This document shows positions 2,131 through 39,734 of a stretch of 64,000 nt of DNA, in pieces. The DNA lies in IMG/VR virus record IMGVR_UViG_3300027963_005443. The stretch is one strand, 5' to 3'. The notes under the pieces were generated by a model. The model saw only the letters and a program-made list of their open reading frames with translations, was not told the DNA's origin and did no database searches. The stretch's first letter is position 1; every line of letters begins with the position of its first letter. Source of the stretch: a virus. A program made the position numbers and the translations under genes.

Positions 2131-5100
2131 TTACATGGAATCAATCACATAACTTTTGTCATTAGCCACAGTAACAACGTCCAGTGGCATGCAGTAACTT
2201 AAAACTACTTTTCCCTTATTATCCACTACTCTTATCCAATTTATACCGCTGTGACAACCTCCTGCTCCCCAGTAACAGGTCAACTGAAATGTATATTCAT
2301 CCTTGCCTGGGAACGGGCGATCGGCTCCACCTTTTTTCGGCTTAACATTACCAGGAATGATTGCGTAATCGTATCTAGCCATAGGATTATTAGCCTTGTC
2401 TGAGAAGGGGTATATTGATGTAAATTTAGAATTATTAGGGGACCTATAATCGAAAGGATCATCTGCTCCTCCTCCATTATTTGTGTTCATTGTCTTAACA
2501 AACACTCCATTTATGTTTAAATTAAACTTAGCGGCATTGCATCCGTGACTACCGTCGCATGATCCCCCCGGCGCCCACCAGCTTTCGGGGCCAGCACCGT
2601 GCTGGGGATCATATATAATCTCTACTCTGTATCCTGCAATTTGGCCTACTGGAGATAGGGGGATCGGGGTAGCAGTTGGGGTTTGGGTTTTTGTTAAGGT
2701 TGGGGTCAAGGTAGGTGTTGGAGGTATGGTAGAGGTCATAGTGGCCGTTAAGCTTGCTGTCGGCACGATAGTCAGAGTAGGCGTCTCTGTAAGTGTGGGG
2801 GTGCTAGTGAGAGTGGGTGTAGACGTAAGCGTAGGAGTTAATGTTTGTGTTGATGTAGGGGTGGGAGTAGGCGTAGGAGGAGGCAAGGGAATACAAACCT
2901 CATTTGACATACAGGGTTTTATACAGAAAACTCTAAAACATATTTCTGTGGCGCCATATGGTCCATTATTGGCCCCAACTTTCATATACTCGCTCAAAGA
3001 CCCAGTTCTACAATTGCCACATCTATTTGGGTCTAGGCACACACAGAGACTATCGTCACTTCTTTGCGTGGAAGCATAAGGAAGTCCATCCTGTTGACTG
3101 TTGGTGCATACAAAACTCGGCAAGTCATCACTTTGGGTTGCATACTTCCAGTAACCAGAATTTAAACCATTGCCCTTATAATAAGCAGCTTTGTACCATT
3201 CGTCTTCACTTGGTATCCAATACTTGGCATTAGTATTCTTTTCCACAATTCCACATTTTGGAACTATTCCATTGAGAGTATATGCTCCATCCTCTGTAGT
3301 TAAAGTATCTTGATTTCCATTAAGCATACCATTATGAAGCCAATTACAAAATCTAGCACAATCATACCAATCCACAAGAACTACAGGTTTATTACACATT
3401 CTACTCTTTGTGGAATAAGTGTAATTTGGAGAAGATCCATTTCTCACTATACCACAATTTACATTATATATATTATCATCTCCTTTATATAATCCGTAAT
3501 CATCTTTCTTGGCAATACTATTTAAAAAAGAGCAATACTGTTTGTTGGTGATAGAATATTTTCCTATTGAATACTTGTAAGAAACAGAACCAAATCCAGA
3601 ATTTCCATTATCATCTACGGACATATCAGACCGATTATTCAAATCTTCAATATCCATAAAGCGTATTCCGCTAAAAGACTCATCATTTAAAGTACAAAGC
3701 CTAAACCCTAATGATTCATGAAAAACATGTGCTCCCACCACTTTTGGATGGTTAGATGAGAGACCGTCTACATTCATCCAAGAACCACCTCTCCAGACTA
3801 TGCAGGATTTATCCGAACAACCGGCAACATTATTTTCTGCCCAATCTAAAGTTATTCCGCTTCCTATTATGTTCCAAACATTACCGCTCATGTCATAAGT
3901 TCCATAGGCACTTGGTCCACCATTTGTGCCAATGGTGGTAACATTGGATGTAGAGCGATGAGCAAAATCAGTGGCTGGCCATTTATTGTATCCCGAGTTT
4001 ACATGTTGAGGTCCGTCATTTAAATCTACATGATCTAAAAATGTTATCCAACCCGGGGAACCTGGTTCGTTGGTCTTGTATTCAATTCCATTGCAACAAT
4101 TATCATTTCTAAGTAAATTTATTATATAATTTAATTTTCCATTACTTAGCAATTCCCCATTAGTGGTAACAGAACCTATTATGATTGGAGGATTACATTC
4201 TTGACAACCTGTGCATCCTGGGTTTGTTGGATCCCAATTACAAGAAGTACTAGTTAGTGTTGGGGTGGAGGTGAGCGTTGGAGTTAAAGATAGAGTTGGA
4301 GTTAAAGTATTTGTTGATGTTAATGTTGGGGTTACAGTTGGTGTTTTGGTAAGCGTAGGGGTGATTGTGGGAGTTAGTGTGGGAGTAAGAGTTAAAGTTG
4401 GCGTTGGCGTGGAGGTAGATGTGGAAGTGGGCGTAACTCCGAGAGTAGATGTCAATGTAGGTGTTGGGTCGGGAGGAACACACACTATGCCATCGCCAAT
4501 ATTACTTGCGCATACACAGTCCGGGGTGATGTCACTCTGTGTCGCATAAGTCCAGTATCCTCCAGAACCATTCTTGTTGGGATCATAATATGCAGCCTTA
4601 TACCATTCATTTTCATTGGGAATAAAATAAAGAGCATTTGGATTTCTTGAAAAGGTTGCGCTATTAGTAACAGCTCCATTTAATGTGTATGCTCCGGTTT
4701 CAGTACTACTAGATGCTGCGCCTCCGTTATGAAGCCAGTTGCATAGTCTTGCCGCACAAAACCAACTTACAAAATTAACAGGTTTATCACCCATATTAAT
4801 TTTAGAAGAATAGGAGTAATTTCCAGAACTTCCAGTTCTTAATATGCCTCCTGCTGGGGTGCTTCCCATGTTAGAACTATATAATACATAATTATCGGTC
4901 TTTGCCACTGAATTTAAAAATTGAGCATATTCATCATTGGTTAACTCATATTTTTGTATTTTATAATTATAAGAAACAGAACCAAATCCAGTATCATCGG
5001 AAGGATTATTGATATTTCCTATCAAAACAAAATTACTATAATTTAATGTGTTGGTAATAGAAGCTATCCTAAATCCCAAATCAGATAAGCCCAAAGGATA

Positions 5101-5958
5101 TTCTACATTGGTGGCGACTTGCCTTGCAAGGTTGGATATGCCAATGGGTGTTGTTGACGACGAGGATCTAAATGAACCTCCTCTGAGATAATGAGCATCG
5201 TTGCTGTTGGGCAGTGGGACGAAGCTTCCATAAGGAGTCTCTGTCCATTCAGCAATATTCCCTGTTTGATCGTATGTTCCATAAGCGCTTGGACCTCCGT
5301 TAGTGCCAACAGTAGTTTGATTTCCTTCACCCGGAAATCCTGCACCCCAAAAAGCGCATGTATCATAATTAGTTTTATTTCTTCCGGCAGGGGATATCTC
5401 TGGCAATTCTGTCTGGGCCAGCGGTCCATCATAAACTTCTATTCTATAGACGTGACCAGGATCGCACTCATTAGGAACCTCAAGATCGTCTATAAAAAAC
5501 AAAAGAGTATTATTAAATGCTATAGCCTCACCAATGGTATCAACCCAAGAAAATTTACTGCTATTGTCAACATATGTATTAACTACATTACTTTGGCCGT
5601 CTCTAGTGATAACAACTCTTGATGTTTTGCCTGCCACTATAAGGCCATCATCTATGCTCAGATAAGGAAACCATTGAAGGTGACCTTGGTAACCATATAA
5701 TCCCCTATCTGAGGTTCTATTTTTTGTATCTAATATTCTTTGCAAATTGCCGGGAAGGCTATCAAATTTAAAGTCTATTATTATTGTATAGCTATTATTA
5801 TAGGCCAATGCATTTTCAAGAATTAACCCTTGGTTGGGACCAAAACTATAGGAGTTGGAACCGGTAAGCGCTCCTCCGATTGCCCGGATTGGCGGTCCAC
5901 CTAGTGTATCATTTAAACTATTTTTGAATTCGTATACATGTATAAGAGAGGCTGGCAT
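2131..5958 (-). CDS. Large virion-surface/fibre-like protein: N-terminal LamG/concanavalin-like domain, two SUMF1/FGE-sulfatase modules, Thr/Pro linkers, unknown C-terminal domain
   Basis: 1275 aa; YGTYDQTGNIAEW, RGGS, GFR, KYELTN, PVNFVSW, WLHNG and ENEWYKAAYY motifs each occur twice; TPTLT repeats. The virion role is inferred. Confidence 0.85.
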   Translation of the reverse strand: MPASLIHVYEFKNSLNDTLGGPPIRAIGGALTGSNSYSFGPNQGLILENALAYNNSYTIIIDFKFDSLPGNLQRILDTKNRTSDRGLYGYQGHLQWFPYLSIDDGLIVAGKTSRVVITRDGQSNVVNTYVDNSSKFSWVDTIGEAIAFNNTLLFFIDDLEVPNECDPGHVYRIEVYDGPLAQTELPEISPAGRNKTNYDTCAFWGAGFPGEGNQTTVGTNGGPSAYGTYDQTGNIAEWTETPYGSFVPLPNSNDAHYLRGGSFRSSSSTTPIGISNLARQVATNVEYPLGLSDLGFRIASITNTLNYSNFVLIGNINNPSDDTGFGSVSYNYKIQKYELTNDEYAQFLNSVAKTDNYVLYSSNMGSTPAGGILRTGSSGNYSYSSKINMGDKPVNFVSWFCAARLCNWLHNGGAASSSTETGAYTLNGAVTNSATFSRNPNALYFIPNENEWYKAAYYDPNKNGSGGYWTYATQSDITPDCVCASNIGDGIVCVPPDPTPTLTSTLGVTPTSTSTSTPTPTLTLTPTLTPTITPTLTKTPTVTPTLTSTNTLTPTLSLTPTLTSTPTLTSTSCNWDPTNPGCTGCQECNPPIIIGSVTTNGELLSNGKLNYIINLLRNDNCCNGIEYKTNEPGSPGWITFLDHVDLNDGPQHVNSGYNKWPATDFAHRSTSNVTTIGTNGGPSAYGTYDMSGNVWNIIGSGITLDWAENNVAGCSDKSCIVWRGGSWMNVDGLSSNHPKVVGAHVFHESLGFRLCTLNDESFSGIRFMDIEDLNNRSDMSVDDNGNSGFGSVSYKYSIGKYSITNKQYCSFLNSIAKKDDYGLYKGDDNIYNVNCGIVRNGSSPNYTYSTKSRMCNKPVVLVDWYDCARFCNWLHNGMLNGNQDTLTTEDGAYTLNGIVPKCGIVEKNTNAKYWIPSEDEWYKAAYYKGNGLNSGYWKYATQSDDLPSFVCTNSQQDGLPYASTQRSDDSLCVCLDPNRCGNCRTGSLSEYMKVGANNGPYGATEICFRVFCIKPCMSNEVCIPLPPPTPTPTPTSTQTLTPTLTSTPTLTSTPTLTETPTLTIVPTASLTATMTSTIPPTPTLTPTLTKTQTPTATPIPLSPVGQIAGYRVEIIYDPQHGAGPESWWAPGGSCDGSHGCNAAKFNLNINGVFVKTMNTNNGGGADDPFDYRSPNNSKFTSIYPFSDKANNPMARYDYAIIPGNVKPKKGGADRPFPGKDEYTFQLTCYWGAGGCHSGINWIRVVDNKGKVVLSYCMPLDVVTVANDKSYVIDSM
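3853..4122. repeat. Second copy of the 270-bp identical segment (1..270)
   Basis: Direct sequence identity at offset 3852. Confidence 0.9.
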
Positions 5959-22416: not shown

Positions 22417-25311
22417 ATGCCAAAAGAAGAACTAGAAAAATACGCAAAAGACCCAACAATCATAGTAATAAATGATGCCATAAGCATTGGATTGAGATAT
22501 GGTGCACCATACACATTGGCTTGGGATCAGAGAAACCTGGCTTACATAAAATCCATAGAGTCTGGGTCTGGGTATGTGCCTCAGAGCTCCTCCCAGTATG
22601 ACAAATTTAATAAAAATAATGCTTCAGATCAGTGCTATAACCATAATCATTATGTGTGGGAAAATGATTCGTGGAACGCAGTATCCGCATGTGATGCGGG
22701 ATGGATAGGAACCCTGGTTTTGGAATATATAGCTCCAACCTCAACACCAACACTTACAAAAACACCAACATTAACATCTACTAATACGCCAACTCCCACC
22801 CTGACTGCTACACCCACAAAAACAAAAACGTTAACACCAACAAAAACATCAACTCCAACTGCAACATCAATTGCAGGCAATAGTGCAAATTATAAAAAAA
22901 ATGCTTATTGGGGAGAAATAGGAAATGAAGGAGGACCAACTTCTGTTGGTACCAACGGAGGACCAAGTGCATATGGCGCCTATGATATGAATGGAAATGT
23001 ATGGGAATTAACAGATGGAAGTAATAGCAAAAAAATTCTACGTGGAGGATCTTTTTCTTCTAATGATTTATTGAAAGGAAACAGATTTGAATTTAATTTC
23101 AAAGATAGAACTATAGGTTTTAGATTATCTTCAATAAATAATCCTTTAAATTATAGTAAATTTGTTAGCATAGGCAATCCTGGAAACCTACCAGATAGTA
23201 GGCATTCCTTCGGAAGTGTGGGATATAATTACTTAATACAAAAATACCCTGTGACAAACACTGAGTATTGTGAGTTTCTCAATATTGTAGCAAAATCGGA
23301 TCCATATAATTTATACAACTATTCAATGTCCGAAGATCCAGCAGGAGGAATACAAATATCTGGTGTATCAGGGAGATACACATATTCAGTAAAACCAAAA
23401 ATGGGCAACAAGCCAGTTAATTTTGTTGGCTGGTTGAGTGCCGCCAGGATGGCTAATTGGCTTCATAATAGAGCATCACATCCATCGACAACAGAGACTG
23501 AGTCTGGGGCATATAATTTAAACGGATCAGAAATATTTTTCGAAATAGATAAAAATCCGAATTCTATGTATTATATTCCGTCTGAGGATGAGTGGTATAA
23601 AGCAGCATTTTACAAATCTAGTGTTGCTGGTTATTGGGAATATTCCACTCAAAGCAACATCGTTCCAAATCCAATTTGTGCAAATAGTAATGGGGACGGC
23701 TCTAATGTGTGCATCACCAGAACACCTACGCCAACAAAAAGTGTAACTCCAACTAACACAAGAACACCCACTTTAACAAAGACATACACTCGAACACCCA
23801 CACAAACTCCCACACTAACAAAAACATCAACTTTAACAAAAACACCAACTTTAACAAAAACTCCTACATTAACCAGTACTCAAACGGCCACGAATTCAAA
23901 TACTCCAACACTAACTAGAACTCCAACACTAACTAGAACTCCAACACTAACTAGAACGATAACCAAAACTTTAACTAATACTCCGACAAAAACAAAGACT
24001 CCAACAATAACCAGAACATCAACAAGTACACCAACTCCTACATTAACAAGAACTCCTACATTAACAAGAACTCCTACACTAACAAGAACTCCTACACTAA
24101 CAAGTACACCTACACTAACAAGTACACCTACACTAACAAGAACTCCTACACTAACAAGTACACCTACACTAACAAGTACACCTACACTAACAAGTACACC
24201 TACACTAACAAGTACACCTACACTAACAAGTACACCTACACTAACAAGTACACCTACACTAACAAGTACACCTACACTAACATTAACAAGTACTCCTACA
24301 CTAACAAGTACACCTACACTAACAAGTACACCTACACTAACATTAACAAGTACTCCTACACTAACAAGTACACCTACACTAACAAGTACACCTACACTAA
24401 CAAGTACACCTACACTAACATTAACAAGTACTCCTACACTAACAAGTACACCTACACTAACATTAACAAGTACTCCTACACTAACAAGTACACCTACACT
24501 AACATTAACAAATACACCGACAAATACCAAAACACCAACCCCTACACAAACACCAACACTATCAAACCCATACGCACCGGGTTATAATGTTTTTGTGGAT
24601 GATTTTAATAGAATTCCGGTTAGTCCTGGAGGAGTGCCATCTATTGTCTATACATCTACGATAACAAATACCGGTAGTATCTCCATTGTTAGTTCATATT
24701 TAAGATTAAGAGCGGATAATACAAATACATCCGGAAGACTTTACATGATGTCTACATATACTTTAATGAATAGTCCTAATTTTTATTCTCAATTAAATTT
24801 AAATCCAACAGTTGTTAATTGGTCTATAAATGTGAGAAATAACTGGTCCGACATTTTAAGTGGGTTTGATACAGGACTTTTTGGCCAAGCCGTTATTTTA
24901 GCGTCAAGTGGAACTAATGTGTTAACTAATGGTTATGGTTATGCGTTAGTTTATGGAGGGTCGGGAACTAGACAATGGCGTTTAGTTAGTTTTACAGGTG
25001 GTCTACAAGCAAACACTAATATAACAACGATTTTATCAACACCAGATTCACCAGGGTTTGGGGATGGCGATTATTTAAGTTTAAAGGTTTCTTATGATTC
25101 GCTAACAAATAATTGGCGATTATATTTTAGGAATGACGGTACCGCTTGGGTTGACCCTAGACTAACAACAGGATATAGTACTCCTGGTGTGGCTACAAAT
25201 GGAACATATACAAATATAACATTAGATTCGTTCGGGTATTTTTATAATTTTGGGTCAACACTAAATTCTAATGCCTCAATATTTGATAAACTTAACATTT
25301 ATTATAATTAA
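22417..25311 (+). CDS. Fibre-like protein: SUMF1/FGE-sulfatase module, long Thr/Pro stalk, C-terminal beta-rich domain
   Basis: GTNGGPSAYGAYDMNGNVWE, RGGSF, GFR, KYPVTN, EDEWYKAAFY; about 290 residues of TPTLT repeats. Confidence 0.85.
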   Translation: MPKEELEKYAKDPTIIVINDAISIGLRYGAPYTLAWDQRNLAYIKSIESGSGYVPQSSSQYDKFNKNNASDQCYNHNHYVWENDSWNAVSACDAGWIGTLVLEYIAPTSTPTLTKTPTLTSTNTPTPTLTATPTKTKTLTPTKTSTPTATSIAGNSANYKKNAYWGEIGNEGGPTSVGTNGGPSAYGAYDMNGNVWELTDGSNSKKILRGGSFSSNDLLKGNRFEFNFKDRTIGFRLSSINNPLNYSKFVSIGNPGNLPDSRHSFGSVGYNYLIQKYPVTNTEYCEFLNIVAKSDPYNLYNYSMSEDPAGGIQISGVSGRYTYSVKPKMGNKPVNFVGWLSAARMANWLHNRASHPSTTETESGAYNLNGSEIFFEIDKNPNSMYYIPSEDEWYKAAFYKSSVAGYWEYSTQSNIVPNPICANSNGDGSNVCITRTPTPTKSVTPTNTRTPTLTKTYTRTPTQTPTLTKTSTLTKTPTLTKTPTLTSTQTATNSNTPTLTRTPTLTRTPTLTRTITKTLTNTPTKTKTPTITRTSTSTPTPTLTRTPTLTRTPTLTRTPTLTSTPTLTSTPTLTRTPTLTSTPTLTSTPTLTSTPTLTSTPTLTSTPTLTSTPTLTSTPTLTLTSTPTLTSTPTLTSTPTLTLTSTPTLTSTPTLTSTPTLTSTPTLTLTSTPTLTSTPTLTLTSTPTLTSTPTLTLTNTPTNTKTPTPTQTPTLSNPYAPGYNVFVDDFNRIPVSPGGVPSIVYTSTITNTGSISIVSSYLRLRADNTNTSGRLYMMSTYTLMNSPNFYSQLNLNPTVVNWSINVRNNWSDILSGFDTGLFGQAVILASSGTNVLTNGYGYALVYGGSGTRQWRLVSFTGGLQANTNITTILSTPDSPGFGDGDYLSLKVSYDSLTNNWRLYFRNDGTAWVDPRLTTGYSTPGVATNGTYTNITLDSFGYFYNFGSTLNSNASIFDKLNIYYN
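23716..24560 (+). repeat. Coding tandem repeat, 18-bp unit ACACCTACACTAACAAGT (TPTLTS) with 24-bp variants (TPTLTLTS)
   Basis: Near-perfect copies from about 24045 to 24510; more degenerate on the flanks. Confidence 0.9.
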
Positions 25312-25402: not shown

Positions 25403-26542
25403 TTAGCTTAAATCCTCCGCTGTTGGTACAACAAATGCTTGCACAGAAACATTTCCAAATTCATATATTTTAACTTTATCATAAACGTCACATAAAATTT
25501 GATCATCATAAACAGAAACTCCATCAACTAACCAACTTCTGGTGGAGGCTGAATTGACCGGCTTATTATTTGCTTCATCAGTAAATGTCCATTGATCTGG
25601 GTTTAGATACATTGTGGCCATATAAGTCATAGCTTTTCTTATACTACCACATTCTTGATCATCAACATAATTCCATATGTCTATTCCTAAGCTAGAGCAA
25701 ACCTTGGCCAAATTACAGAGAAGTGTGAGATTAAAGTTACAATAGTGCATCTTTAAAGTTCTTTCCATCTCTAATGGTTGTTGTCCATCGGAAGCTATTT
25801 GTTTACTCAAAACTTCCTTGACATTAGCTTCTAGATAGTTTCTTGCTTCTTCTTCTTTTCCTGCGGCAGATAGATATGAAGCAAGTTGTAGCATATAGGA
25901 TGTTTTTATGTTGTGGTGATAACCAGACTGAAGAATGCCTCTGGGGCTATTTTGAAACCAATTTGCGAGTTCTCCGAACCATAATTTCATTCCATCTTCA
26001 TCATTATCTGTCCAGTTGGGGGTGGTCCTGAGAACTTCTATCATGTCTACCACATACGGTAGAGAAACCACATCTATTGTTGCCCCTCTTATCTTTAAAT
26101 GATTTTCATTATTTCCCATAACTATGCCACTGTACGTTAGGTCTGGGTTCATCCTTGAATTTTCTATTAAGAAAAAATGCCTGATATACTCCACCGCTTT
26201 TAAACCATACTCTTCTGATTTTGAGACACGATAAATCAAAGTAGAAACAATAACAGATTTTATAAATTTATAAAAAAATGATCTATCAGAAGTTTCAAAT
26301 GAATTTTTATTTATTATTCCATCTTTTCTTATATACGGAAAACCAGTTCGTGTATTTGGATTTGGATGCCAATAATTAGCTAAACTTGTATAATTATTAG
26401 CCCCAGTTGTCTTTTTTATAGATGCCGTATTCTGGGTTATGCTTGGGGGAAGTTCAGGAAGTTCAATACCATAATTCTGGACAAATAATTCTATTTCTTG
26501 GTTAGAGAGCTTGTTTAATCTAGCCTCATTTAGCATCAACAT
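25403..26542 (-). CDS. Alginate lyase-family polysaccharide lyase
   Basis: YTSLANYWHPNP...GFPYIRKDG, RMNPDLTYS, HHNIKT, QPLEMERT, HYCNFNL match the Alginate_lyase (PL5-like) fold. Confidence 0.85.
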   Translation of the reverse strand: MLMLNEARLNKLSNQEIELFVQNYGIELPELPPSITQNTASIKKTTGANNYTSLANYWHPNPNTRTGFPYIRKDGIINKNSFETSDRSFFYKFIKSVIVSTLIYRVSKSEEYGLKAVEYIRHFFLIENSRMNPDLTYSGIVMGNNENHLKIRGATIDVVSLPYVVDMIEVLRTTPNWTDNDEDGMKLWFGELANWFQNSPRGILQSGYHHNIKTSYMLQLASYLSAAGKEEEARNYLEANVKEVLSKQIASDGQQPLEMERTLKMHYCNFNLTLLCNLAKVCSSLGIDIWNYVDDQECGSIRKAMTYMATMYLNPDQWTFTDEANNKPVNSASTRSWLVDGVSVYDDQILCDVYDKVKIYEFGNVSVQAFVVPTAEDLS

Positions 26543-29761: not shown

Positions 29762-30244
29762 TTACAAATTGTTTAGTTTTTTAGAATACACCCATAATTC
29801 AAATTCATCGAATTTTTGAAATAATTTCTTATCCCAATTGTCTTCTTGAAAATCTGGGAACATAACATCTCCATCATATTCTTTACTTATCTTAGAAATA
29901 TACATCTTATCCACTAAATTCTTATCTAAGACATATTTATATAATTTACATCCACCAATAACAAATATTTTTTTATTTAAATTTATTTTATTACAGAAAT
30001 TAATAGATTCTTCAAAATTAGGAAAACAGTAAACATTTGCGTCTAATTTATTTTTAGTTAAAACTATGTTTAGTCTCTTGGGTAAAGGCTTACCTATGCT
30101 CTCATAAGTATTTCTCCCCATTACTACAATATTGTTTGTAGTAATCTGCTTAAAGAACGCCATGTCTTCTTTAATTTTCCATGGCAAAGAATTTTGTTTA
30201 CCCATGACTCTTTTAGGGTCATAGGCTGCGATTAAATTGATCAT
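29762..30244 (-). CDS. folA: Dihydrofolate reductase
   Basis: INLIAA, LPW..KEDMAFFK, VVMGRNTYESIGKPLPKRLNIVLT, VIGG. Confidence 0.95.
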   Translation of the reverse strand: MINLIAAYDPKRVMGKQNSLPWKIKEDMAFFKQITTNNIVVMGRNTYESIGKPLPKRLNIVLTKNKLDANVYCFPNFEESINFCNKINLNKKIFVIGGCKLYKYVLDKNLVDKMYISKISKEYDGDVMFPDFQEDNWDKKLFQKFDEFELWVYSKKLNNL

Positions 30245-31101
30245 ACGGCCATTTCAACCTTTGGAAGGGGAGGATGAGGGTCATAATTAATTAACTCTAA
30301 ATCCTCGTAATTTAACTCTAACAACTCTTCAAGAGTAGAAAAATCTTTTTTAAACACAAGAGATGGCAATTGTCTTGGAACTCTAGTTATCTGCTGTTGA
30401 ACCGCCTCTAATTGATTATTATATAAATGTGCATCCCAACCAAAGTAAGTAAGTTCTCCCGGTTGTAAATTCAATAATTTACTAAAGGCAAGGTTTAAAA
30501 AAGCGTATCCCATTATATTGGTTGGAAGTCCTAGATACAAATCATTGCTTCTCATTACGAAACAACTATTGAGTTTATTTTCACTAACAGAATACATATG
30601 CATTATGTGGCAAGGAGGAAGAGGTGTGCCTGAATTTTGACTTGGATTCCAAGCAGTAACAATATGCCTTCTTCCATTGGGATCAGTCTTAAGGTTATTA
30701 ATTAAGTCTCTTATTTGATCAACACCATCACTGTTGCCCAAAGTTCCACCAAAATTTCTCCAAGAATGAGAATAGCCAGTCCCAATAGAACCTTCAGGAA
30801 GATGTGATAATCCACGATTATCTAAAAATTCTCTGGTTGTGTTTCCCCGCCAAATATTAATGTTTTTATCTTCAAGTTTCTTTGTATCTGTTTCTCCACG
30901 TAAAAAAAACATGGTTTCTTCAAAGGCAATCCTAAAAGAAACCTTCCTTGTCGTGACCATTGGGAAACCATCGGATAGATTCCACTTAAGGGTGGCACCA
31001 TTAATAAAACGACTACCTATGCCCGTCCTATCTTGTCTGTCAGTGCCAGACGACAAAACATTGCTAAGTAAGCTGATGTAATTTTCCATGCTAAGCATCA
31101 A
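30241..31101 (-). CDS. thyA: Thymidylate synthase
   Basis: DRTGIG, GRRHIVTAWNP, LPPCH, RSNDLYLGLPTN, DAHLY. Confidence 0.95.
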   Translation of the reverse strand: MMLSMENYISLLSNVLSSGTDRQDRTGIGSRFINGATLKWNLSDGFPMVTTRKVSFRIAFEETMFFLRGETDTKKLEDKNINIWRGNTTREFLDNRGLSHLPEGSIGTGYSHSWRNFGGTLGNSDGVDQIRDLINNLKTDPNGRRHIVTAWNPSQNSGTPLPPCHIMHMYSVSENKLNSCFVMRSNDLYLGLPTNIMGYAFLNLAFSKLLNLQPGELTYFGWDAHLYNNQLEAVQQQITRVPRQLPSLVFKKDFSTLEELLELNYEDLELINYDPHPPLPKVEMAV

Positions 31102-31500: not shown

Positions 31501-33132
31501 TTATTTACTTTTTTTTGTTAATTTTTTTTTATTTTCCAAGGCCGCCGAAACAAAACCTTTAAAAAGAGGAGCGGCATCTGACAATCTGCTCTTAAATTCT
31601 GGATGTGCTTGTGTTCCGACAAAAAATGGATGCTTTAGTTGATCTAATTCCATTATTTCAACTAATTTGGTTTCCGGGTTAAATCCAGATAGATTTAAGC
31701 CCTTCTTAGCAAAAATCTCTAAATACTTAGGATTAACCTCGAGCCTATGTCTGTGCCTTTCGCTTATTGTGTTTTTATTGTCCCATCTATTTGGCGACCC
31801 AGAATAAACATTGTGAGCAATTGTGCCTTTAATTAATTCACAATTATAAGATCCTAATCTCATACTAGCGCTCTTAACTGCTATATCTTTTTGTCCTACT
31901 AAATAATGAACAACTGGGTCAACTGCATCTTTGTCGAATTCTTGGCTATTAGCCCCCAGCATACTGCAAACATTTTTAGCAAATTCAATTACTGCACATT
32001 GCAGTCCTAGGCATATACCAAGAAATGGAATCTTATTTTCTCTAACATACTTTATACACTGAATTTTTCCTTCTGTTCCATTTTTATCAAACCCCCCAGG
32101 AACTATTAGTCCATCTATATCCTTGATAGTTTCCTTAACATTTTTATTGTCAATATCCTGTGCACGGATCCACTTTATATTTATCTTAACCCCATAAAAC
32201 ATTGAGGTGTGGGTAAGAGCTTCCTTCAAAGAAAGATAAGCCTCATCATGATTTGAATACTTTCCACAGATGCCAATAGTCATCTCTTCATTTATTGGTT
32301 TCTCAATTAGTTCTTTGTACTTATGTATTCTACATGAGCTTCTCTTGAGCCTGAGCATATCTACACAATAATCATCTATATGTCTATTGTAAAATTCTAT
32401 TGGAACTTGATAGACAGAATCTACGTCTCTGGCTTCGAATATAGCACCCCTATCAACACCCGTCATATCAGATACTTTATCTAATAATTTAACAGGTATT
32501 TCTCTGTCTACTCTGCACAGAAGCAATTCAGGATTTATACCATATTGATATAGTTGCTTGACTGCATTCTGTAGAGGTTTAGTCTTAAATTCTTTTATGG
32601 TTGGAACCCAGAGTATGGGCGCAACCATTGCCACCATGACATCATTTTTTTGTTCAAATTGACGAACTGCTTCGTAGAATACAGCACTTTCCATATCCCC
32701 CACAGTTCCGCCTATCTCACATATAACCACCTCTGAAGTTTTACCTAGACTTAAAAGACGATCTTGAATCTTATCTGTTACATGGGGCATAATTTGAAGA
32801 GTTCTCCCCAAATTTTCACCCTTTTCCTGACCAACTATCAATTCTTTGTAAAGAGTTCCAGAAGTGCATATATTTTGGCTGGACATATTGATACCAGCAA
32901 TTCGCTCAACGGTACCAAGGTCTAGATCTGTTTCTTTACCATCATCGCAAAGAAAACATTCTCCATGTTCAATAGGAGATAATACACCGGCATCCGAGGA
33001 TAAATAAGGTTCAAACTTTATGTAGTTGACCTTATATCCACGAAGTTTTAACAACAAGGCTATAGAAGCAGATGCTACACCCTTGCCAGTTCCAGAAATT
33101 ACTCCACCACAAACAATAATATATTTGGCCAT
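31501..33132 (-). CDS. pyrG: CTP synthase
   Basis: GGVISGTGKG, EIGGTVGDME, KTKPLQ, GICLGLQ, ERHRHR, QAHPEF. Confidence 0.97.
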   Translation of the reverse strand: MAKYIIVCGGVISGTGKGVASASIALLLKLRGYKVNYIKFEPYLSSDAGVLSPIEHGECFLCDDGKETDLDLGTVERIAGINMSSQNICTSGTLYKELIVGQEKGENLGRTLQIMPHVTDKIQDRLLSLGKTSEVVICEIGGTVGDMESAVFYEAVRQFEQKNDVMVAMVAPILWVPTIKEFKTKPLQNAVKQLYQYGINPELLLCRVDREIPVKLLDKVSDMTGVDRGAIFEARDVDSVYQVPIEFYNRHIDDYCVDMLRLKRSSCRIHKYKELIEKPINEEMTIGICGKYSNHDEAYLSLKEALTHTSMFYGVKINIKWIRAQDIDNKNVKETIKDIDGLIVPGGFDKNGTEGKIQCIKYVRENKIPFLGICLGLQCAVIEFAKNVCSMLGANSQEFDKDAVDPVVHYLVGQKDIAVKSASMRLGSYNCELIKGTIAHNVYSGSPNRWDNKNTISERHRHRLEVNPKYLEIFAKKGLNLSGFNPETKLVEIMELDQLKHPFFVGTQAHPEFKSRLSDAAPLFKGFVSAALENKKKLTKKSK

Positions 33133-33141
33133 TTTTTTAAA

Positions 33142-36100
33142 TTAATTTAATTCACATTTACCACCTGCACACGCAATTGTGTCCATTGGTTTAGTATAGT
33201 CTTTATCTTCTAAAAATTGGGTGTAGTCTACTTCCTTATATTCCTTGGTTAAATCTAACCAGATTTTCCAATTATTTACATGTTTTAACATGTATGTGCA
33301 TTTTTTAATATTGCCATCACAATATCTCATTGCAAATTGTCGGACTCTTCTAACCCAATCATTTTTTAACTCCCAGGATTTTTCTTCCTCCGGCTGAGTT
33401 GGCTTATCTAAAGCATATAAACCAACTGCGTAGTTGCATGCCTCCCAAAGATCTCCATAAGCATGTAAACCATCAACTATTAATCCGCTCGCAAGCAAGC
33501 AGCCTTCACCGTATTCTTGTAATATCTCTTTTGCATTCAAGACATTGCAAAAAGGAGCCTGAGGATAGTCTAAATCTCCACTTGCAGGAAGCAAACTAAC
33601 TCCAGCAAAATACTTTCTATTCTTGTAGATGAAGTCTCCTACAATTTCCCACTCATCGGGACGAACATTAATTGTATTGCTAACATTATGACTTAACCAA
33701 GGTTGTGTGCAAGCACTTTTACGCTTACCATAAGCCACCCAATTTTGTTGAGTAGTTTTCACATACTCTAGAAGGTCTTGAGCACTCAAATCATTCTTGG
33801 TTTTTGCTGCAGTTGGTACTTCAACACAGAAAGTAACAACTTCGTCTTTTTTGTTTGCACTCCAAACACTCTTATCAACAGCATGTGGATTAAACTTCTT
33901 GAAATATTGAAGAACGGGCTCCATTTGATTTGCCTGAGTTCTTCTGAAGTATCTCTTTGCATGATGAGGATGAATTCCGCTGCTTGTCCCCAATAAGCAG
34001 CTAGTGGTTCCTGCAGGTTTGATGCAGGTGGACCTTGCACATGGATTTATACCAATCTTTTTAGCCATCCATTCATTGGTATCCAAAACCAGTTTGGCCA
34101 TTTCCTTTTGAACTTCAGGATCGAATATTACATCTGGGTTGTCCATCATGCCAGTAATACTAACGCCTAACAAAGCTTCACGTTCCACAATCTTCTCAGT
34201 GGTTTTACCCAGATAAGGAAAACTTGTATACCCTGCTTGTAAGGTTCCGATAATAGAAGCAGCCCTTGCAGCAATGGCAAAATCTTCCTTGCATTTAATC
34301 TTTTTGCCATTTATTTCGGTTAGATTGCAACACTGCCAGCCAGATTCTCCTGTTTCTATATCTACTGGGTACATGCCGATTTCCACGCATCTACGAGCAG
34401 TCATTCCTTCGGCAATCAAAGTTCTCCGATTATTTTCTGTTAGACAGAAGACATCTTGTTTACCAATGTAAGTTATAGACTTAACTTTGGAAGAATAGTT
34501 TGGATGCCTTGGTGTCTGTGATTTTTCAAGAGCATAATTTATCCTTGTGACATCTTTGGTGTGTATGTCCAAGAAACTCAAACTATTTTTACAATTCAAC
34601 AAACCTCCAACTATAAGTCTGTAACTCTCTTTTGTATTATAAGACCTATAGTTTCTGTTACTATCTGGGAGCATAGCTGAGCCAGCTTTTCTAGAGAGAA
34701 AAATCTTGCTAAAAACACCGAGCTCCTGAAGAATAAGTTGAATATCTGAAAGGATCTTCTTATTAACAGAAGTCAATCTCAGGCTAACTGTTTTTACCTC
34801 ATCGGAATATTCTGTGTGTCCATCGCAATAAAACATTGCAGAAACAAATCCAGATTTAAACTCTTTGTTTTTAGAGTGGATAAAATCAATATTGTCTTTG
34901 TTTGCAGAAATGCCCTCTAATTTAAATATTTGACCAAGCAATGTACTTGAAAGAGTAAATTTTGGTTTACCTCCATAAATTTTGCCTTCATTGATACTAA
35001 ACTTGGGATTGGTATTAGAATTTACATTTAAGTTTAAACTATCGATGTTGGCTTTGATTTCTTCTGATACGATGTTCTCAATCTTTGCTGCTAATGCGGG
35101 AGAATCTTCGCCCCACATTTCAATTCTGGCTGCGCCATCAGTAAAGCATCCATCGCCAAAAACCATTCCAACTAAATAACCAAAATTAAAGTCTCTTGAA
35201 TCTTTCTTGGACTCATATAATTCTGGAAGTGGAACTAATACCTCATCGTCTACTCTAAGATCCTCCAACTTAACCATGCCGTTAACTGTGGCAAAATGAT
35301 GGTTTCCAGTAGCTTTGACTTTTCGTCCACAACTAAGTTCTAACTCGTAAACATCTCTATTACGACCAGTTCTACGAATGTTGGTTGCTAAATTAGATGT
35401 TGCTTCGTTAGGCAAATCCAAATTAATATCCCAAAATTCTTCATTATTTTCAATTCTTCCTAACACCCTATTATCTTGAAGAATTTTTACCTCTTCTCCC
35501 AGAATGGAGGAGAAAGACATCCAGCCACTTTCCGTTAGAATTCTTGTATCTATTGTGAAGCATGGGTTTGGAACTTGCTCCGTGCTGTCACTCCAATAGA
35601 AACCCGGTTCACCAAACTGCTTAATTGATTCCATAAGTTTCAAAAAGTCTTCTTTTGAAACTTCATCCCTAATTAAAACAGCAGAATTATTTGATCTGGC
35701 TCGCTGAGGATTATCGACAAACCAATTACCAGTCTTGGCAGTAGCCATTTCTTCATCATCGTGACTGAACAAAGCAATAGTAGCTGAGCGTCTAACGCCA
35801 CCAGATAACACAGCATCACTTGCGTGCATTATTATGTCGTAGGCATCTATTGATTTTAGTTTCTTTTGTTTGTTTTCTAAACAACGATCTAATAATTTCC
35901 TGATTATCTCCAAACTTCTCTTAAGAGGTTCTGATCCTGGGGCTTTGCCTACACCAGAAGCAAGAATTGTCCCTTCTGCCCTGATTAGGCTGTAGTCAAA
36001 ATCTACATTAAAACCTTTCCATTCAGAAAACTCTTGGTGAGGAAGATAGGTGGCAAGGAGAATCCCTAAAGCATCAGCCCAACCTTCAATTGTATCTGGG

Positions 36101-36519
36101 ATAGAAAAAGTTTTGGATTCAAGAGCGGTTCTATCCAACTTATGAAAATTTGGAAGTTTATCCACATGATGTTTTTGAACGCTGAACCCCGTCCCTGCGC
36201 CGCAAAGTAATAGCCAAAAAGATTCTTGAAAAAATCTTATGCGATCACAAAAGCTAGATGTACAGTTGAAAATACGAGCATTCTTCTTCTCACATGGTTC
36301 TCCTCCAAATTGCAAAGCTCTTTGGGAACCAAGTACTTTTCTCTGTTTGACCATTTCAAATGCCCATTCAATATCCTCCGATGCTTGGGGATATCTACGA
36401 AGATGCATTTGCTTAACACGATCAACAGCCTCGGCCCATGTCTCTCTACGACCCTCTTCTTTGTTATATCGAGCGTATTTAGAGTAATAGGTATAATCTT
36501 GAAGAGCTTTTACTGACAT
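33142..36519 (-). CDS. nrdJ: Ribonucleotide reductase, class II (NrdJ/RTPR)-like, interrupted by an intein
   Basis: RIFNC, NP|C..E split by the intein, CNLTEI, LGVSITG, TCIKPAGTTS, C-terminal CAGGKC. No NrdB gene in the window; the class assignment is inferred. Confidence 0.85.
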   Translation of the reverse strand: MSVKALQDYTYYSKYARYNKEEGRRETWAEAVDRVKQMHLRRYPQASEDIEWAFEMVKQRKVLGSQRALQFGGEPCEKKNARIFNCTSSFCDRIRFFQESFWLLLCGAGTGFSVQKHHVDKLPNFHKLDRTALESKTFSIPDTIEGWADALGILLATYLPHQEFSEWKGFNVDFDYSLIRAEGTILASGVGKAPGSEPLKRSLEIIRKLLDRCLENKQKKLKSIDAYDIIMHASDAVLSGGVRRSATIALFSHDDEEMATAKTGNWFVDNPQRARSNNSAVLIRDEVSKEDFLKLMESIKQFGEPGFYWSDSTEQVPNPCFTIDTRILTESGWMSFSSILGEEVKILQDNRVLGRIENNEEFWDINLDLPNEATSNLATNIRRTGRNRDVYELELSCGRKVKATGNHHFATVNGMVKLEDLRVDDEVLVPLPELYESKKDSRDFNFGYLVGMVFGDGCFTDGAARIEMWGEDSPALAAKIENIVSEEIKANIDSLNLNVNSNTNPKFSINEGKIYGGKPKFTLSSTLLGQIFKLEGISANKDNIDFIHSKNKEFKSGFVSAMFYCDGHTEYSDEVKTVSLRLTSVNKKILSDIQLILQELGVFSKIFLSRKAGSAMLPDSNRNYRSYNTKESYRLIVGGLLNCKNSLSFLDIHTKDVTRINYALEKSQTPRHPNYSSKVKSITYIGKQDVFCLTENNRRTLIAEGMTARRCVEIGMYPVDIETGESGWQCCNLTEINGKKIKCKEDFAIAARAASIIGTLQAGYTSFPYLGKTTEKIVEREALLGVSITGMMDNPDVIFDPEVQKEMAKLVLDTNEWMAKKIGINPCARSTCIKPAGTTSCLLGTSSGIHPHHAKRYFRRTQANQMEPVLQYFKKFNPHAVDKSVWSANKKDEVVTFCVEVPTAAKTKNDLSAQDLLEYVKTTQQNWVAYGKRKSACTQPWLSHNVSNTINVRPDEWEIVGDFIYKNRKYFAGVSLLPASGDLDYPQAPFCNVLNAKEILQEYGEGCLLASGLIVDGLHAYGDLWEACNYAVGLYALDKPTQPEEEKSWELKNDWVRRVRQFAMRYCDGNIKKCTYMLKHVNNWKIWLDLTKEYKEVDYTQFLEDKDYTKPMDTIACAGGKCELN
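34390..35562 (-). mobile_element. 391-aa intein with LAGLIDADG homing endonuclease; atypical C-terminal Arg
   Basis: Block A CFTIDTRILT, block B KATGNH, LAGLIDADG-like LVGMVFGDG and FVSAMFYCDG, block F/G VFCLTE...EGMTARR followed by CVEI. Confidence 0.88.
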
Positions 36520-36678: not shown

Positions 36679-38682
36679 TTAATCTTTTTCTAATTTAGAA
36701 ATTCCATTTTCCATTATTAGATTTAAAATATCTGAGCCGGAGAGCATAGATAGCAAATCGTTATCGTGAGTGGTAATAAAAATTTGTCGATCCTCCGCCA
36801 ACTCACATATCATGTGATAAATATTATTAACTCCTATTGGATCAATGTTTGTCGTAACTTCATCAAGAAACATTATGCTTGGGCAAGTTCCGGTGGTGAG
36901 TAGCATCACATGTGCAAAGCTCAAAGAAACAGCAAGATTTAGTCTTCTCTTTTGTCCTGCGCTCATGGTGTGATAGAAGAAATCAATTTGTTCATCATTG
37001 ATTATTTTAAATATACTTTCTTCTAATTCATTATTAAATTCTATCTTCAACCTGTTGTTGTCAAGGACTTGCATCCAATACATCAATTTAGAATTAAGGG
37101 CAGGGATTATTCCATCTACAACCCATTTTCGGATTCCTTTATCTCCAAATGCATCCACCCAGAATGAATAATAGGGAATTTCTTTTTCAGCCTCTTGAAT
37201 CTTTTCCTTCTTGGATTCAACAGCTTCTTCTGCCTCTTCTTTATCTTTAATTAAATTTGCAATTATTTCAGAATATGGAGATGTATTCTCGAACTCTTCT
37301 TTTAACTCCTTAGCCTTTTTAGTTAATAATTCTATTTCAGCCTGCAGCACTTTTTTTACAGAATTGGATTCAGGCTCTTTTATAGCAGAAAGTTTGACAA
37401 ATTCATTTCTAAAAGAATTTAAGTTGACATTAATTTCTTGCTCTTTTTTAGAAAATTCCAATACCTTTTTTTCTTTTTCTTTAATATCTTCTTCAAGCTT
37501 TTTCGGATTTAAACTTAATATATCTTCAGAAAAATCTTTAATCTCTTTTTCAAGAACATCGTTATCTTCATTATATTTTTCAAGTACCTTTGAATAATTC
37601 TCGGGGTCTATCTTCCCATAACACACGCTACATGTTTGACCAGGTTCATGTTCATGTAATTTCTTAATTTCCTTATTATTTTTTTCTACACTAGATTTTT
37701 TATTCTTTATTTCGAAATCAAGTTTGCGAATAGAATCTTTTTTTGATTCAAATTCTTTTTTAATCAAATCAATAGACTCTTTTAATTTTAATTTGTCATC
37801 AGCTAATTTTTTAATAACAGAATTATTATTCTCTATATCGATATTTATTTCATCAATTCTTTCCCTTGCCTTTTCATACTCAGATAAATCTTCTTCTTCA
37901 TTAAGATTTTCAAGCTTGGATTTCTTATCTTTTATAGAAACAATTAGAGTTGATATTTCTTTCTTTTTACCATTCTTCCAAGAAATTTCATTTTGATTTG
38001 CTTGTTCTATTTTTTGTTCTATAGATGTTTTGTTCTTATCCAGAATTTCATATTCAGATGTATATTGTTTTAAAAAATTCTTACTATCCCTCAATAAGTT
38101 CTTACTTGCATCAAATCTCTGTCTGTAAACATCTAGACTTAAAAGATTCTCTACAATTTCACGTTTTTTGGGAGTGTCGGCTTCTAAGAAATAGCTACTG
38201 ATGTCATCTGTGAAAACGGAAGTTTTAATAAACGATTCATAAGAAAGCCCTATTATTTCTTCTATCTTAAGCTGTGTATCAACAGATTTGCCCTGTGTGA
38301 TTTCTGTTTTATCAGTCCAATCTTGATCTTCACTCTCCCAGAGTCTCAGGAAATCAGGACTTCTTCCTCTTGAGACCTTGTATTTATCAAATATAATTTC
38401 TACTTTACAATTCTTCTTGATTAAATTATTGACAACATCATTCTTGCTGAATTTCTTTGGGCTTTTAATTGTTTTGCCAAATAAGGCGTAAACAATAATC
38501 TCAGGGATACTGGATTTGCCAGAGCCGTTGCTCGACTCCTTTAAAGAGCTTTCATCTATATCCATGTTTTGACCACGGACCAAAATGATATTGCTCAATT
38601 CTTCAAAAGATATCTCTATGCCCTCTGGGCCGAATGGCAAAAAGTTATAAGCAGAAGCGCTTTTAAATTTTAGATTTTTCAT
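36679..38682 (-). CDS. SbcC/Rad50/gp46-like recombination ATPase
   Basis: NGSGKSS, coiled coil with CSVC zinc hook, MSAGQ signature, FLDE. Confidence 0.92.
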   Translation of the reverse strand: MKNLKFKSASAYNFLPFGPEGIEISFEELSNIILVRGQNMDIDESSLKESSNGSGKSSIPEIIVYALFGKTIKSPKKFSKNDVVNNLIKKNCKVEIIFDKYKVSRGRSPDFLRLWESEDQDWTDKTEITQGKSVDTQLKIEEIIGLSYESFIKTSVFTDDISSYFLEADTPKKREIVENLLSLDVYRQRFDASKNLLRDSKNFLKQYTSEYEILDKNKTSIEQKIEQANQNEISWKNGKKKEISTLIVSIKDKKSKLENLNEEEDLSEYEKARERIDEINIDIENNNSVIKKLADDKLKLKESIDLIKKEFESKKDSIRKLDFEIKNKKSSVEKNNKEIKKLHEHEPGQTCSVCYGKIDPENYSKVLEKYNEDNDVLEKEIKDFSEDILSLNPKKLEEDIKEKEKKVLEFSKKEQEINVNLNSFRNEFVKLSAIKEPESNSVKKVLQAEIELLTKKAKELKEEFENTSPYSEIIANLIKDKEEAEEAVESKKEKIQEAEKEIPYYSFWVDAFGDKGIRKWVVDGIIPALNSKLMYWMQVLDNNRLKIEFNNELEESIFKIINDEQIDFFYHTMSAGQKRRLNLAVSLSFAHVMLLTTGTCPSIMFLDEVTTNIDPIGVNNIYHMICELAEDRQIFITTHDNDLLSMLSGSDILNLIMENGISKLEKD

Positions 38683-39734
38683 GCTACCTGAGTTTCGCAG
38701 ATTTTCTTTCCAATTTTTACCAAAAGTTCTTTATCTAATTCAGTCTTTGACTGTTCTACATATTTGGAAATCATATCTTCTTCATTATAAGAAGAAACTT
38801 CTATCTTTTCATCATCCTCTTTTTTAGAATCAATCTTTTTAGTTTGTTTAACTTTTAGTTCTAAAACTTTATTTTCTTGCGTTATAGATTTTTTAATTTT
38901 TAATAAATCTACATTAGAAATATCATCTACAATCAATTGGATAAAGTTACCATTTAAATCATGATTTTGCAAATCATCGTCTTTGCAAATAATATGTTTT
39001 GGACTAAATTTATTCTCTATATATTTTTTGGTTCCGTCTTCAACATCTAAAAGTACAATACATTTCTTTTCAAAGGCTTCGCCAAAACTTAATTGAAGAG
39101 GACTGCCTATGTATTCGACATTATCGTTGACATTTTGTTTGGAATGAAAATGACCTAAAAACACATTATCGTAACCAGAGAATAATTTTGGATCTACACT
39201 TACCATATCTCCTTCATGCTCAACAAGAATGTCAGAAGAATATTTACCTTGATGCATTTTAGCATCATTAATTGCAATGTGTCCTATTAAAAACTTCTTT
39301 TTACCAGAAAGACTATCTAAAATCTTTAGGGATTCAGGAACATTATTTGTGAATGGAAGGAAATCCCAATTGACACCTTCAATTTCTATTCTTTTTGGTT
39401 TATCTATTAATTCAATTCCATCTATAGCAGTGAATGGAGTAACGCTGCTTACAGTTGATTTATCAAAAAACCATAGATCATGGTTGCCCAGAAGCATCCA
39501 AAGCTTTAAATCTTTAAAGCTTTCTCTAAGAACTTCAAATGTTCTTTGATAAGTATAAATGTCAATTTTATATCTATCGTGGAAAAAATCTCCACCAAAA
39601 ATAACGTTCTTTACTTTATTTTTCTTTGCGGTATCGGCAACCCAAGAAAGAACTTTTAAACAATCCTCTAATCGATCTAAACTCTTTTTATGAGGATGTA
39701 TGTGGAGATCACTGAATAAAAGTATTTTTGACAT
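38679..39734 (-). CDS. SbcD/Mre11/gp47-like nuclease
   Basis: SDLH, GGDFFH, GNHD, GHFH, YIGSP. Confidence 0.92.
   Translation of the reverse strand: MSKILLFSDLHIHPHKKSLDRLEDCLKVLSWVADTAKKNKVKNVIFGGDFFHDRYKIDIYTYQRTFEVLRESFKDLKLWMLLGNHDLWFFDKSTVSSVTPFTAIDGIELIDKPKRIEIEGVNWDFLPFTNNVPESLKILDSLSGKKKFLIGHIAINDAKMHQGKYSSDILVEHEGDMVSVDPKLFSGYDNVFLGHFHSKQNVNDNVEYIGSPLQLSFGEAFEKKCIVLLDVEDGTKKYIENKFSPKHIICKDDDLQNHDLNGNFIQLIVDDISNVDLLKIKKSITQENKVLELKVKQTKKIDSKKEDDEKIEVSSYNEEDMISKYVEQSKTELDKELLVKIGKKICETQVA

Follow-up and report, generated by a model that had tools for sequence, protein, structure and literature searches.

Inteins that end in arginine probably finish protein splicing by chemistry that has not yet been described, as comparison of their sequences suggests. 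The copy from which this work started is a 391-residue intein in the class II ribonucleotide reductase (RNR) gene of a 64,000-nt stretch of DNA, the source of which is a large uncultured phage (IMG/VR virus record IMGVR_UViG_3300027963_005443; the whole stretch is referred to below as the window). The intein carries Arg residues at its last two positions; the same ending is present in independent assemblies, and the terminal Arg is shared by a family of related inteins. The parts of the interrupted gene, all encoded on the minus strand of the window, are as follows; a slash in a motif denotes a splice junction.

33142..36519, minus strand: intein-interrupted class II (RTPR-like, adenosylcobalamin-dependent) RNR gene, 1125 aa (TIGR02505, Pfam)
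35563..36519, minus strand: N-extein, RNR residues 1-319, with ...EQVPNP at its end (the empty-site allele P0219/L089 is collinear)
34390..35562, minus strand: 391-aa intein P0002 (HINT splicing domain plus LAGLIDADG homing endonuclease), RNR residues 320-710 (profiles, AlphaFold2, empty allele)
35560..35562, minus strand: codon of Cys1, the intein N-terminal nucleophile (invariant in 164 of 164 aligned relatives)
35299..35310, minus strand: block B, T85-G-N-H88 (T85 99% and H88 100% conserved in the Arg-terminal clade)
35149..35175, minus strand: LAGLIDADG motif 1, LVGMVFGDG, with catalytic D137 (D137 92% and G138 93% in the clade; Pfam LAGLIDADG_3)
34819..34848, minus strand: LAGLIDADG motif 2, FVSAMFYCDG, with catalytic D247 (D247 93% and G248 97% in the clade)
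34405..34455, minus strand: block F, DVFCLTENNRRTLIAEG, with Cys373 (F:4, 34444-34446), Glu376 (34435-34437) and Arg380 at the block-F His position (34423-34425)
34390..34404, minus strand: block G, M-T-A-R390-R391 (R390 is CGT, 34393-34395; R391 is AGA, 34390-34392)
34387..34389, minus strand: Cys+1 codon TGC, the C-extein nucleophile and NPCxE thiyl-radical cysteine of mature RNR (C320/E322 in spliced numbering, at least 97% conserved in 49 host RNRs)
33142..34386, minus strand: remaining C-extein (VEIGMYP...CNL...CAGGKCELN) and stop codon (compared with the empty-site allele)

The Arg-Arg ending of the window intein is confirmed as real. A sequence-only reading of the window had placed the end of the intein at Arg-Arg/Cys (codons CGT AGA TGC), and the gene sequence contains exactly this ending (...GMTARR/C). 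The nearest record to the window is a 103-kb IMG/VR contig (G001) with one RNR and one intein match, and its gene is 99% identical to that of the window and has the same ending; the intein itself is identical there and in other cluster members (JGI, ENA, Logan), and three further full-length members of the 90% cluster (JGI, ENA) read ...MTARR/CVEIGM. The same reading had offered four alternatives for the unusual terminus, one of which, assembly error, is excluded by the identical ending shared by independent JGI, ENA, and Logan assemblies. Recoding of AGA or a rare-codon frameshift is excluded as well: AGA had been taken as an Arg codon in this genome from the ERHRHR motif of PyrG, the arginines of that motif are indeed encoded by AGG, AGA, and AGG, and the terminal Arg of relatives is encoded by AGA, AGG, or CGT. 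With identical independent assemblies, AGA read as Arg in PyrG, and varied Arg codons in relatives, the chance that the ending is an artefact of sequencing, assembly, or AGA reassignment is negligible.

The boundaries of the intein can be fixed at 391 residues because a natural empty-site allele exists (P0219/L089, reading ...EQVPNPCVEIGMYPVDIE...), the exteins of which are 96.8% identical to those of the window at the DNA level; relative to this allele, the insert in the window is exactly 1173 bp. Shifted boundaries are thereby excluded, and the sole ambiguity is which of the flanking Cys residues counts as intein residue 1. The alternative register, Phe...Cys/Val, provides neither a position-1 nor a +1 nucleophile. 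In the register adopted here, the intein starts with Cys-Phe-Thr-Ile right after ...VPNP, and R391 is followed by Cys+1 and then by V-E-I. The insert matches the profiles Intein_splicing (PF14890; 43.5 bits, cut-off 35.8), intein_Nterm (TIGR01445; 28.3 bits, cut-off 24.5), and LAGLIDADG_3 (PF14528; 40 bits). An AlphaFold2 model built from a 26-sequence alignment has a mean predicted local distance difference test score (pLDDT) of 93.7 and a predicted TM-score (pTM) of 0.92, and its top Foldseek matches are the TliVMA intein (7qsu; E=4.5e-17), PI-PfuI (Pfu RIR1-1, 1dq3; 1.1e-13), and PI-SceI (1vde). These nearest solved folds share the two-domain HINT and LAGLIDADG architecture, with query-normalised TM-scores of 0.53-0.60, but are only 10-16% identical to the window intein and are all reportedly Asn-terminal.

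Judged from its motifs and predicted fold, the insert is an intein by each testable criterion except the cyclisable C-terminal residue of class 1. The normal Cys1, TGNH block B, and LAGLIDADG motifs of the sequence-only reading were borne out (Cys1, T85-G-N-H88, D137, and D247), and the other features of class 1 are present, namely Cys at position 1, Thr (B:7) and His (B:10) in block B, and Cys at +1. Class 1 inteins require a C-terminal Asn, or Gln, Asp, or Glu, that is able to cyclise (PMC4031507), whereas in the window intein it is Arg391 that stands, with no gap in the alignment, opposite the terminal Asn or Gln found in relatives. In known inteins, activation of the terminal Asn and stabilisation of the tetrahedral intermediate are the work of two histidines, His F:13 and the penultimate His G:6 (Mills, Johnson & Perler 2014, PMC4031507). 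The window intein has Arg at the block-F His position, at the penultimate position, and in place of the terminal Asn; position 380 was identified as the block-F His position by its alignment with the corresponding His of the Ssp DnaB mini-intein. The signature of class 3 inteins reportedly comprises, following Tori et al. in 2010, the lack of a position-1 nucleophile, an obligate Cys F:4, Trp at B:12, and a penultimate Thr. Class 3 inteins, such as those of mycobacteriophage Bethlehem DnaB and Deinococcus radiodurans Snf2, share Cys F:4 with the window intein, and it has been suggested that they arose in phages (PMC4031507), but they lack the position-1 nucleophile and end in Asn, whereas the window intein has Cys1, Phe90 at B:12, and Arg390 as the penultimate residue. 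Bacterial intein-like (BIL) domains lack either a +1 nucleophile or block G similarity (PMC4031507), whereas in the window intein Cys+1 is present and block G aligns with inteins, with G386 conserved and the spacing equal. The emphasis that the sequence-only reading had placed on Cys in block F as an oddity was overstated: Cys is the second commonest residue at F:4 after Asp (Mills, Johnson & Perler 2014, PMC4031507), and many of the relatives at this RNR site that end in Asn or Gln also have Cys F:4.

Homologs were collected by two intein searches, one word-indexed over 5.8 billion proteins and the other an exhaustive phmmer search over 1.84 billion cluster representatives (1544 hits), and the combined set consists of 202 homologs whose alignment extends through the C-terminal junction. 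The same RNR position (NPC/.../CxE or, in class I enzymes, SNLC/.../CxE) is occupied by nearly all of them. Seventy-nine end in Arg, with the terminal pairs RR (70), AR (4), KR (2), QR (1), SR (1), and VR (1), and the remaining homologs end in HN, GN, SN, GQ, AQ, SQ, and similar pairs, with FD in one. Thus the expectation that could have dismissed the window copy, namely that its homologs all end in Asn or Gln, did not hold, and the ending xRR/C recurs across divergent copies. A lone dead mutant, a second of the four alternatives, is accordingly excluded, given 79 Arg-terminal inteins among 202 same-site homologs, of which the 75 in the tree fall into essentially one clade. G386, located five residues upstream of the terminal residue, is conserved in Arg-terminal and Asn- or Gln-terminal homologs alike. 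Because the terminal Arg is encoded by AGA, AGG, or CGT at loci ranging from 28 to 68% GC, the trait must be under selection as an amino acid.

In a tree of 164 inteins built without the last two residues, 75 Arg-terminal sequences lie within a single clade of 78 rows (support 99); elsewhere in this tree, Asn and Gln interchange more than 20 times. The three exceptions nested in the Arg clade, which end in RN, KN, and RQ, carry His or Asn at position 380. The total branch length is ~50 substitutions per site within the clade and ~69 among the 89 relatives outside it. Over this length, no change occurred within the clade at C1, H88, C373 (F:4), E376, or R391, Cys+1 is also fixed, and R390 is 88% conserved. 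At position 380, 73 sequences of the clade have R and 2 have K, whereas outside it N, H, or S is found and R never; position 376 changes 17 times outside the clade, where F:4 is Cys in 51 and Asp in 38 sequences. The switch to a terminal Arg is coupled to Arg or Lys at the block-F His position, to a fixed Glu376, and usually to Arg as the penultimate residue.

These comparisons indicate that Arg-terminal inteins are an old, mostly phage-borne, and mobile lineage. Members with a readable context reside in phage nucleotide-metabolism modules. Two high-GC Arg-terminal members (P0049 and P0051; EDVWCL...TARR/CGE) are located in dimeric-NrdJ-like exteins on contigs of unclear origin, which carry genes for MFS and AI-2E transporters, DnaJ, VWA, and methylase proteins. 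These contigs may be cellular or plasmid rather than phage; if they are, and if the interrupted gene is the only RNR, they would be strong evidence for splicing in vivo. On a phage-like contig bearing another RNR gene with an Arg-terminal intein, a gene for an IS605 OrfB / Cas12f-like TnpB protein was found nearby (L088:7484-8665).

The phages related to that of the window share the same gene order (helicases, SbcD, SbcC, RNR, PyrG, a 132-aa open reading frame (ORF), ThyA, and DHFR) and present four allelic states of the RNR gene. The first allele contains the Arg-terminal intein alone (the window and G001). The second has the empty site EQVPNPCVEIGMYP and a different, 309-aa intein at YN/C86 (P0219; L089 and L090), and the third contains both inteins together (P0216). 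In the fourth, the same NPC/C site is taken by a canonical intein of 358 aa, which has Asp at F:4 and His at the block-F His position and ends in His-Asn (P0218; L091:6001-9279; more than 24 contigs), within exteins ~95-97% identical to those of the window; this P0218-type intein is a natural competitor of the Arg-terminal intein at the same site. The 309-aa insert (P0219, L089:6001-9132 and L090:6001-9132) is located at the redox-cysteine site YN/C86, starts with CFEKST, and ends with ...VWCLEVEGDHSFILENGLATGN/CTSS; it has Cys F:4 and a Gly-Asn terminus, and precomputed Pfam matches did not flag it as an intein.

The exteins of the window and the empty allele differ by 57 synonymous and 9 non-synonymous codons, and the mismatches in the C-extein (compared with L089) are unevenly distributed, with 17 in the first 360 nt beside the site and 0 in the other 888 nt. 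This clustering beside the insertion site resembles a co-conversion tract of the kind that homing leaves behind. Compared with G001, the intein shows 1 synonymous difference, whereas 81 codons differ in the N-extein (66 synonymous and 15 non-synonymous), and the exteins in total show 76 synonymous and 16 non-synonymous differences. Together with the allelic states, these patterns show the intein to be mobile.

Several lines of comparison suggest that the family splices. An active RNR cannot tolerate an insertion of 391 aa at the tip of the finger loop that bears the radical cysteine, and, as the sequence-only reading had stated, the +1 Cys of the window intein is this very residue. Among 49 complete single-intein hosts of Arg-terminal inteins, the RNR frames are open, and N85-C86, N318-P319-C320-x-E322, C340 (CNL motif), and the C726/C731 pair are at least 97% conserved. 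Pairwise identities of intein and extein are correlated in this set (r = 0.75), and both average 0.37. In two members, P0052 (279 aa) and P0055 (305 aa), the endonuclease domain is shortened and both catalytic Asp positions lack an acidic residue, a full-length member (P0167) has lost both catalytic Asp residues, and four other members have lost one. All of these endonuclease-decayed members keep ...CL.E..[RK]RT...ARR/C, and because they do so, selection appears to act on splicing rather than on homing. For the same reason, a role of the terminal Arg in the endonuclease or in DNA binding only is unlikely.

An alternative is that the Arg-terminal inteins do not splice but are selfish elements, which either inactivate a phage RNR that can be dispensed with or do no more than release the N-extein, with homing outpacing the fitness cost. 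The residue on which splicing canonically relies in its third step is indeed absent, mutation of the terminal Asn blocks C-terminal cleavage in the inteins studied (PMC4031507), phage RNRs can be accessory, with some intein-bearing phage nrdA genes thought to be decaying (PMC3653736), and the window copy is a recent invader. However, C1, T85, H88, C373, R391, and C+1 remain fixed over ~50 substitutions per site, the host RNRs are open and keep all catalytic residues down to ~20% extein identity while co-diverging with their inteins, and the RR splicing motifs are retained where the endonuclease has decayed, contrary to the expectation for elements that live by homing only. We therefore regard a loss of splicing as distinctly improbable. 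On balance, we lean slightly towards the view that the Arg-terminal inteins are splicing-competent and carry out step 3 without cyclisation of Asn, Gln, or Asp, with cyclisation of Arg as the favoured route.

In the mechanism proposed here, the first two steps would be those of ordinary class 1 inteins, as suggested by the invariant residues: an N-S acyl shift at Cys1, aided by the Thr and His of block B, followed by transfer of the N-extein to Cys+1. Step 3, which cuts the intein from Cys+1, cannot use the cyclisation of Asn, Gln, or Asp because the terminal residue is always Arg. Instead, the N-epsilon of Arg391 could attack its own backbone carbonyl to form a six-membered delta-lactam. Glu376 would serve as the base, and the part of Arg390 and of Arg or Lys at position 380 would be to depress the pKa of the guanidinium group or to stabilise the oxyanion. 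Splicing would leave the NPCVEI finger loop intact, so that the phage RNR would become active only after excision. The N-epsilon-2 of Gln is topologically equivalent to the N-epsilon of Arg, and the ring size would be the same as in the glutarimide route of the Gln-terminal relatives at this site; moreover, activated arginine is known to form a delta-lactam as a side reaction in peptide synthesis. If the terminal Arg does cyclise, with an Arg/Lys-Glu constellation in place of the usual two histidines as promoter, this would be a self-cleavage of proteins not seen before in nature, and the inteins concerned would amount to a mechanistic class of their own. We put this route forward tentatively, at somewhat less than an even chance. 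Of the four alternatives of the sequence-only reading, it is thus non-canonical resolution of the branched intermediate that the comparative data appear to favour, assembly error and a lone dead mutant having been set aside.

Several points weigh against this interpretation. The Arg clade has essentially one origin, and its 75 sequences do not represent 75 independent events, so only the long branch length without change counts. No Arg-terminal member was found in cultured phages, the best matches there being the RNR inteins of the SPbeta group (Bacillus bnrdE and Staphylococcus nrdE; 23-28% identity). Nor was any Arg-terminal intein present in the best 80 of 255 loci in cellular genomes, all of which have Asp F:4 with HN, HQ, GQ, or GN ends, in a search that was not exhaustive, its patterns being drawn from the N-terminus and the endonuclease domain. 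The window copy invaded its site recently, so the conservation of its own exteins is not yet proof of splicing, and for every member of the family the evidence for splicing is comparative. As for the chemistry, the guanidinium group, with a pKa of ~13.8, is a very poor nucleophile, and we know of no protein that cleaves its backbone by Arg cyclisation. Finally, the fixed Cys F:4 of the clade fits a thiol-based route equally well.

Such a thiol-based step 3 is a serious rival to Arg cyclisation, although we consider it rather unlikely. In this scheme, the intein would still be self-splicing, but Cys373 would attack the Arg391-Cys+1 bond, or Cys+1 would undergo an N-S acyl shift there; the resulting thioester would be hydrolysed or exchanged, the exteins would be joined as in native chemical ligation, and the arginines would serve only as an oxyanion hole or as electrostatic catalysts. 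Cys1, Cys373, and Cys+1 meet in the active site, and Cys373 is unchanged in the Arg clade, compared with Cys (51) or Asp (38) and 5 changes among the relatives. The penultimate Arg, for its part, is dispensable, as 8 sequences of the tree set have A, K, S, or V instead. To our knowledge, however, no intein cleaves its C-terminal junction in this manner, and the route leaves unexplained both the invariable terminal Arg and the covariation of the terminal residue with position 380 and Glu376. That a splice-junction amide can be attacked by Cys F:4 as the nucleophile is shown by class 3 inteins (PMC4031507), but Cys F:4 is common in Asn- and Gln-terminal relatives and may simply have been inherited.

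It was also considered whether a trans-acting factor completes splicing, either a protease that cuts after Arg-Arg or Lys-Arg and frees Cys+1 for ligation to the Cys1 thioester, or a phage or host cofactor that makes splicing conditional. The terminal pair is mostly dibasic (RR in 70 and KR in 2 homologs), and conditional inteins are well documented (PMC4031507). However, A, S, V, or Q may stand at the penultimate position, no neighbouring gene recurs alongside the intein at the loci examined, and the covariation lies inside the HINT active site (positions 380, 376, and 391), pointing to autocatalysis; dependence on such a factor is therefore very improbable.

Known inteins are listed as ending in no residue other than Asn, Gln, Asp, or Glu (Mills, Johnson & Perler 2014, PMC4031507), and no published description of an Arg-terminal intein was found in the literature searched. 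The closest parallels with a replaced terminal Asn are the class 1 inteins of Chilo iridescent virus RNR and Pyrococcus abyssi Pol II, which end in Gln, and Chy RIR1, which ends in Asp (PMC4031507). Like the window intein, these have Cys1, the Thr and His of block B, and a +1 nucleophile; they often lack the penultimate His, and many relatives at the RNR site of the window intein likewise end in GQ, AQ, or SQ, and one in FD. Unlike Gln and Asp, the side chains of which form an imide or anhydride, Arg has no amide or carboxyl group, and the lineage of the window intein is further set apart by Arg or Lys at the block-F His position and by the fixed Glu376. The canonical inteins at the same site, namely those of bnrdE in Bacillus phage SPbeta (23-24% identity to the window intein over the full length for the SPbeta group) and of P0218/L091 (358 aa), share with it the insertion site (NPC/CxE or SNLC/CxE), the HINT and LAGLIDADG domains, Cys1, and Cys+1, but differ from it at F:4 (Asp), at the block-F His position (His), and at the terminus (His-Asn).

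The host protein itself has the motifs of a monomeric RTPR-type enzyme: the thiyl-radical loop NPCxE, the redox cysteines, and CxxxxC at the C-terminus are all present, and in 49 hosts these motifs are at least 97% conserved. The flanks of the insert match TIGR02505 (RTPR; E=4.5e-62) and the Pfam families RNR_Alpha, RNR-II_ins_dom, and Ribonuc_red_lgC; the TIGR02505 score of 210 bits falls short of the cut-off of 340 bits, the gene being interrupted and divergent. The gene is part of a nucleotide-metabolism and replication module comprising ThyA, a 132-aa ORF, PyrG, SbcC- and SbcD-like proteins, two helicases, and a DnaE-type polymerase, in which the following neighbours were located.

31501..33132, minus strand: CTP synthase (PyrG), downstream neighbour (ERHRHR motif)
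30241..31101, minus strand: thymidylate synthase (ThyA), same nucleotide-metabolism module (gene neighbourhood)
36679-38682, minus strand: SbcC-like ATPase, upstream neighbour (gene order shared with the sister phages L089, L090, and L091)
38679-39734, minus strand: SbcD-like phosphoesterase, upstream neighbour (gene order shared with the same sister phages)

The DnaE-type DNA polymerase III alpha subunit (finger, NTPase, and HHH domains) is encoded by the phage at 15607-18225 of the window (minus strand). The combination of this polymerase with PyrG, ThyA, and RNR is consistent with a jumbo phage, and G001 was rated 21% complete by CheckV. Elsewhere in the window, FGE-sulfatase / C-type-lectin-like domains were found in two very large proteins (2131-5958, minus strand, 1275 aa; and 22417-25311, plus strand, 964 aa), and an alginate lyase gene is located near them (25403-26542).

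An old and mobile Arg-terminal lineage at an indispensable cysteine of RNR would imply either a new autocatalytic cleavage of a peptide bond or a new mode by which such elements persist. The empty site and the canonical His-Asn intein, both present in near-identical exteins, provide natural controls for distinguishing these possibilities. Intein finders that demand a terminal Asn or Gln will miss or mis-call Arg-terminal elements, and the C-terminal cleavage chemistry, if new, could serve protein engineering. In large marine and freshwater phages, splicing at the radical site of RNR may gate the supply of deoxynucleoside triphosphates.

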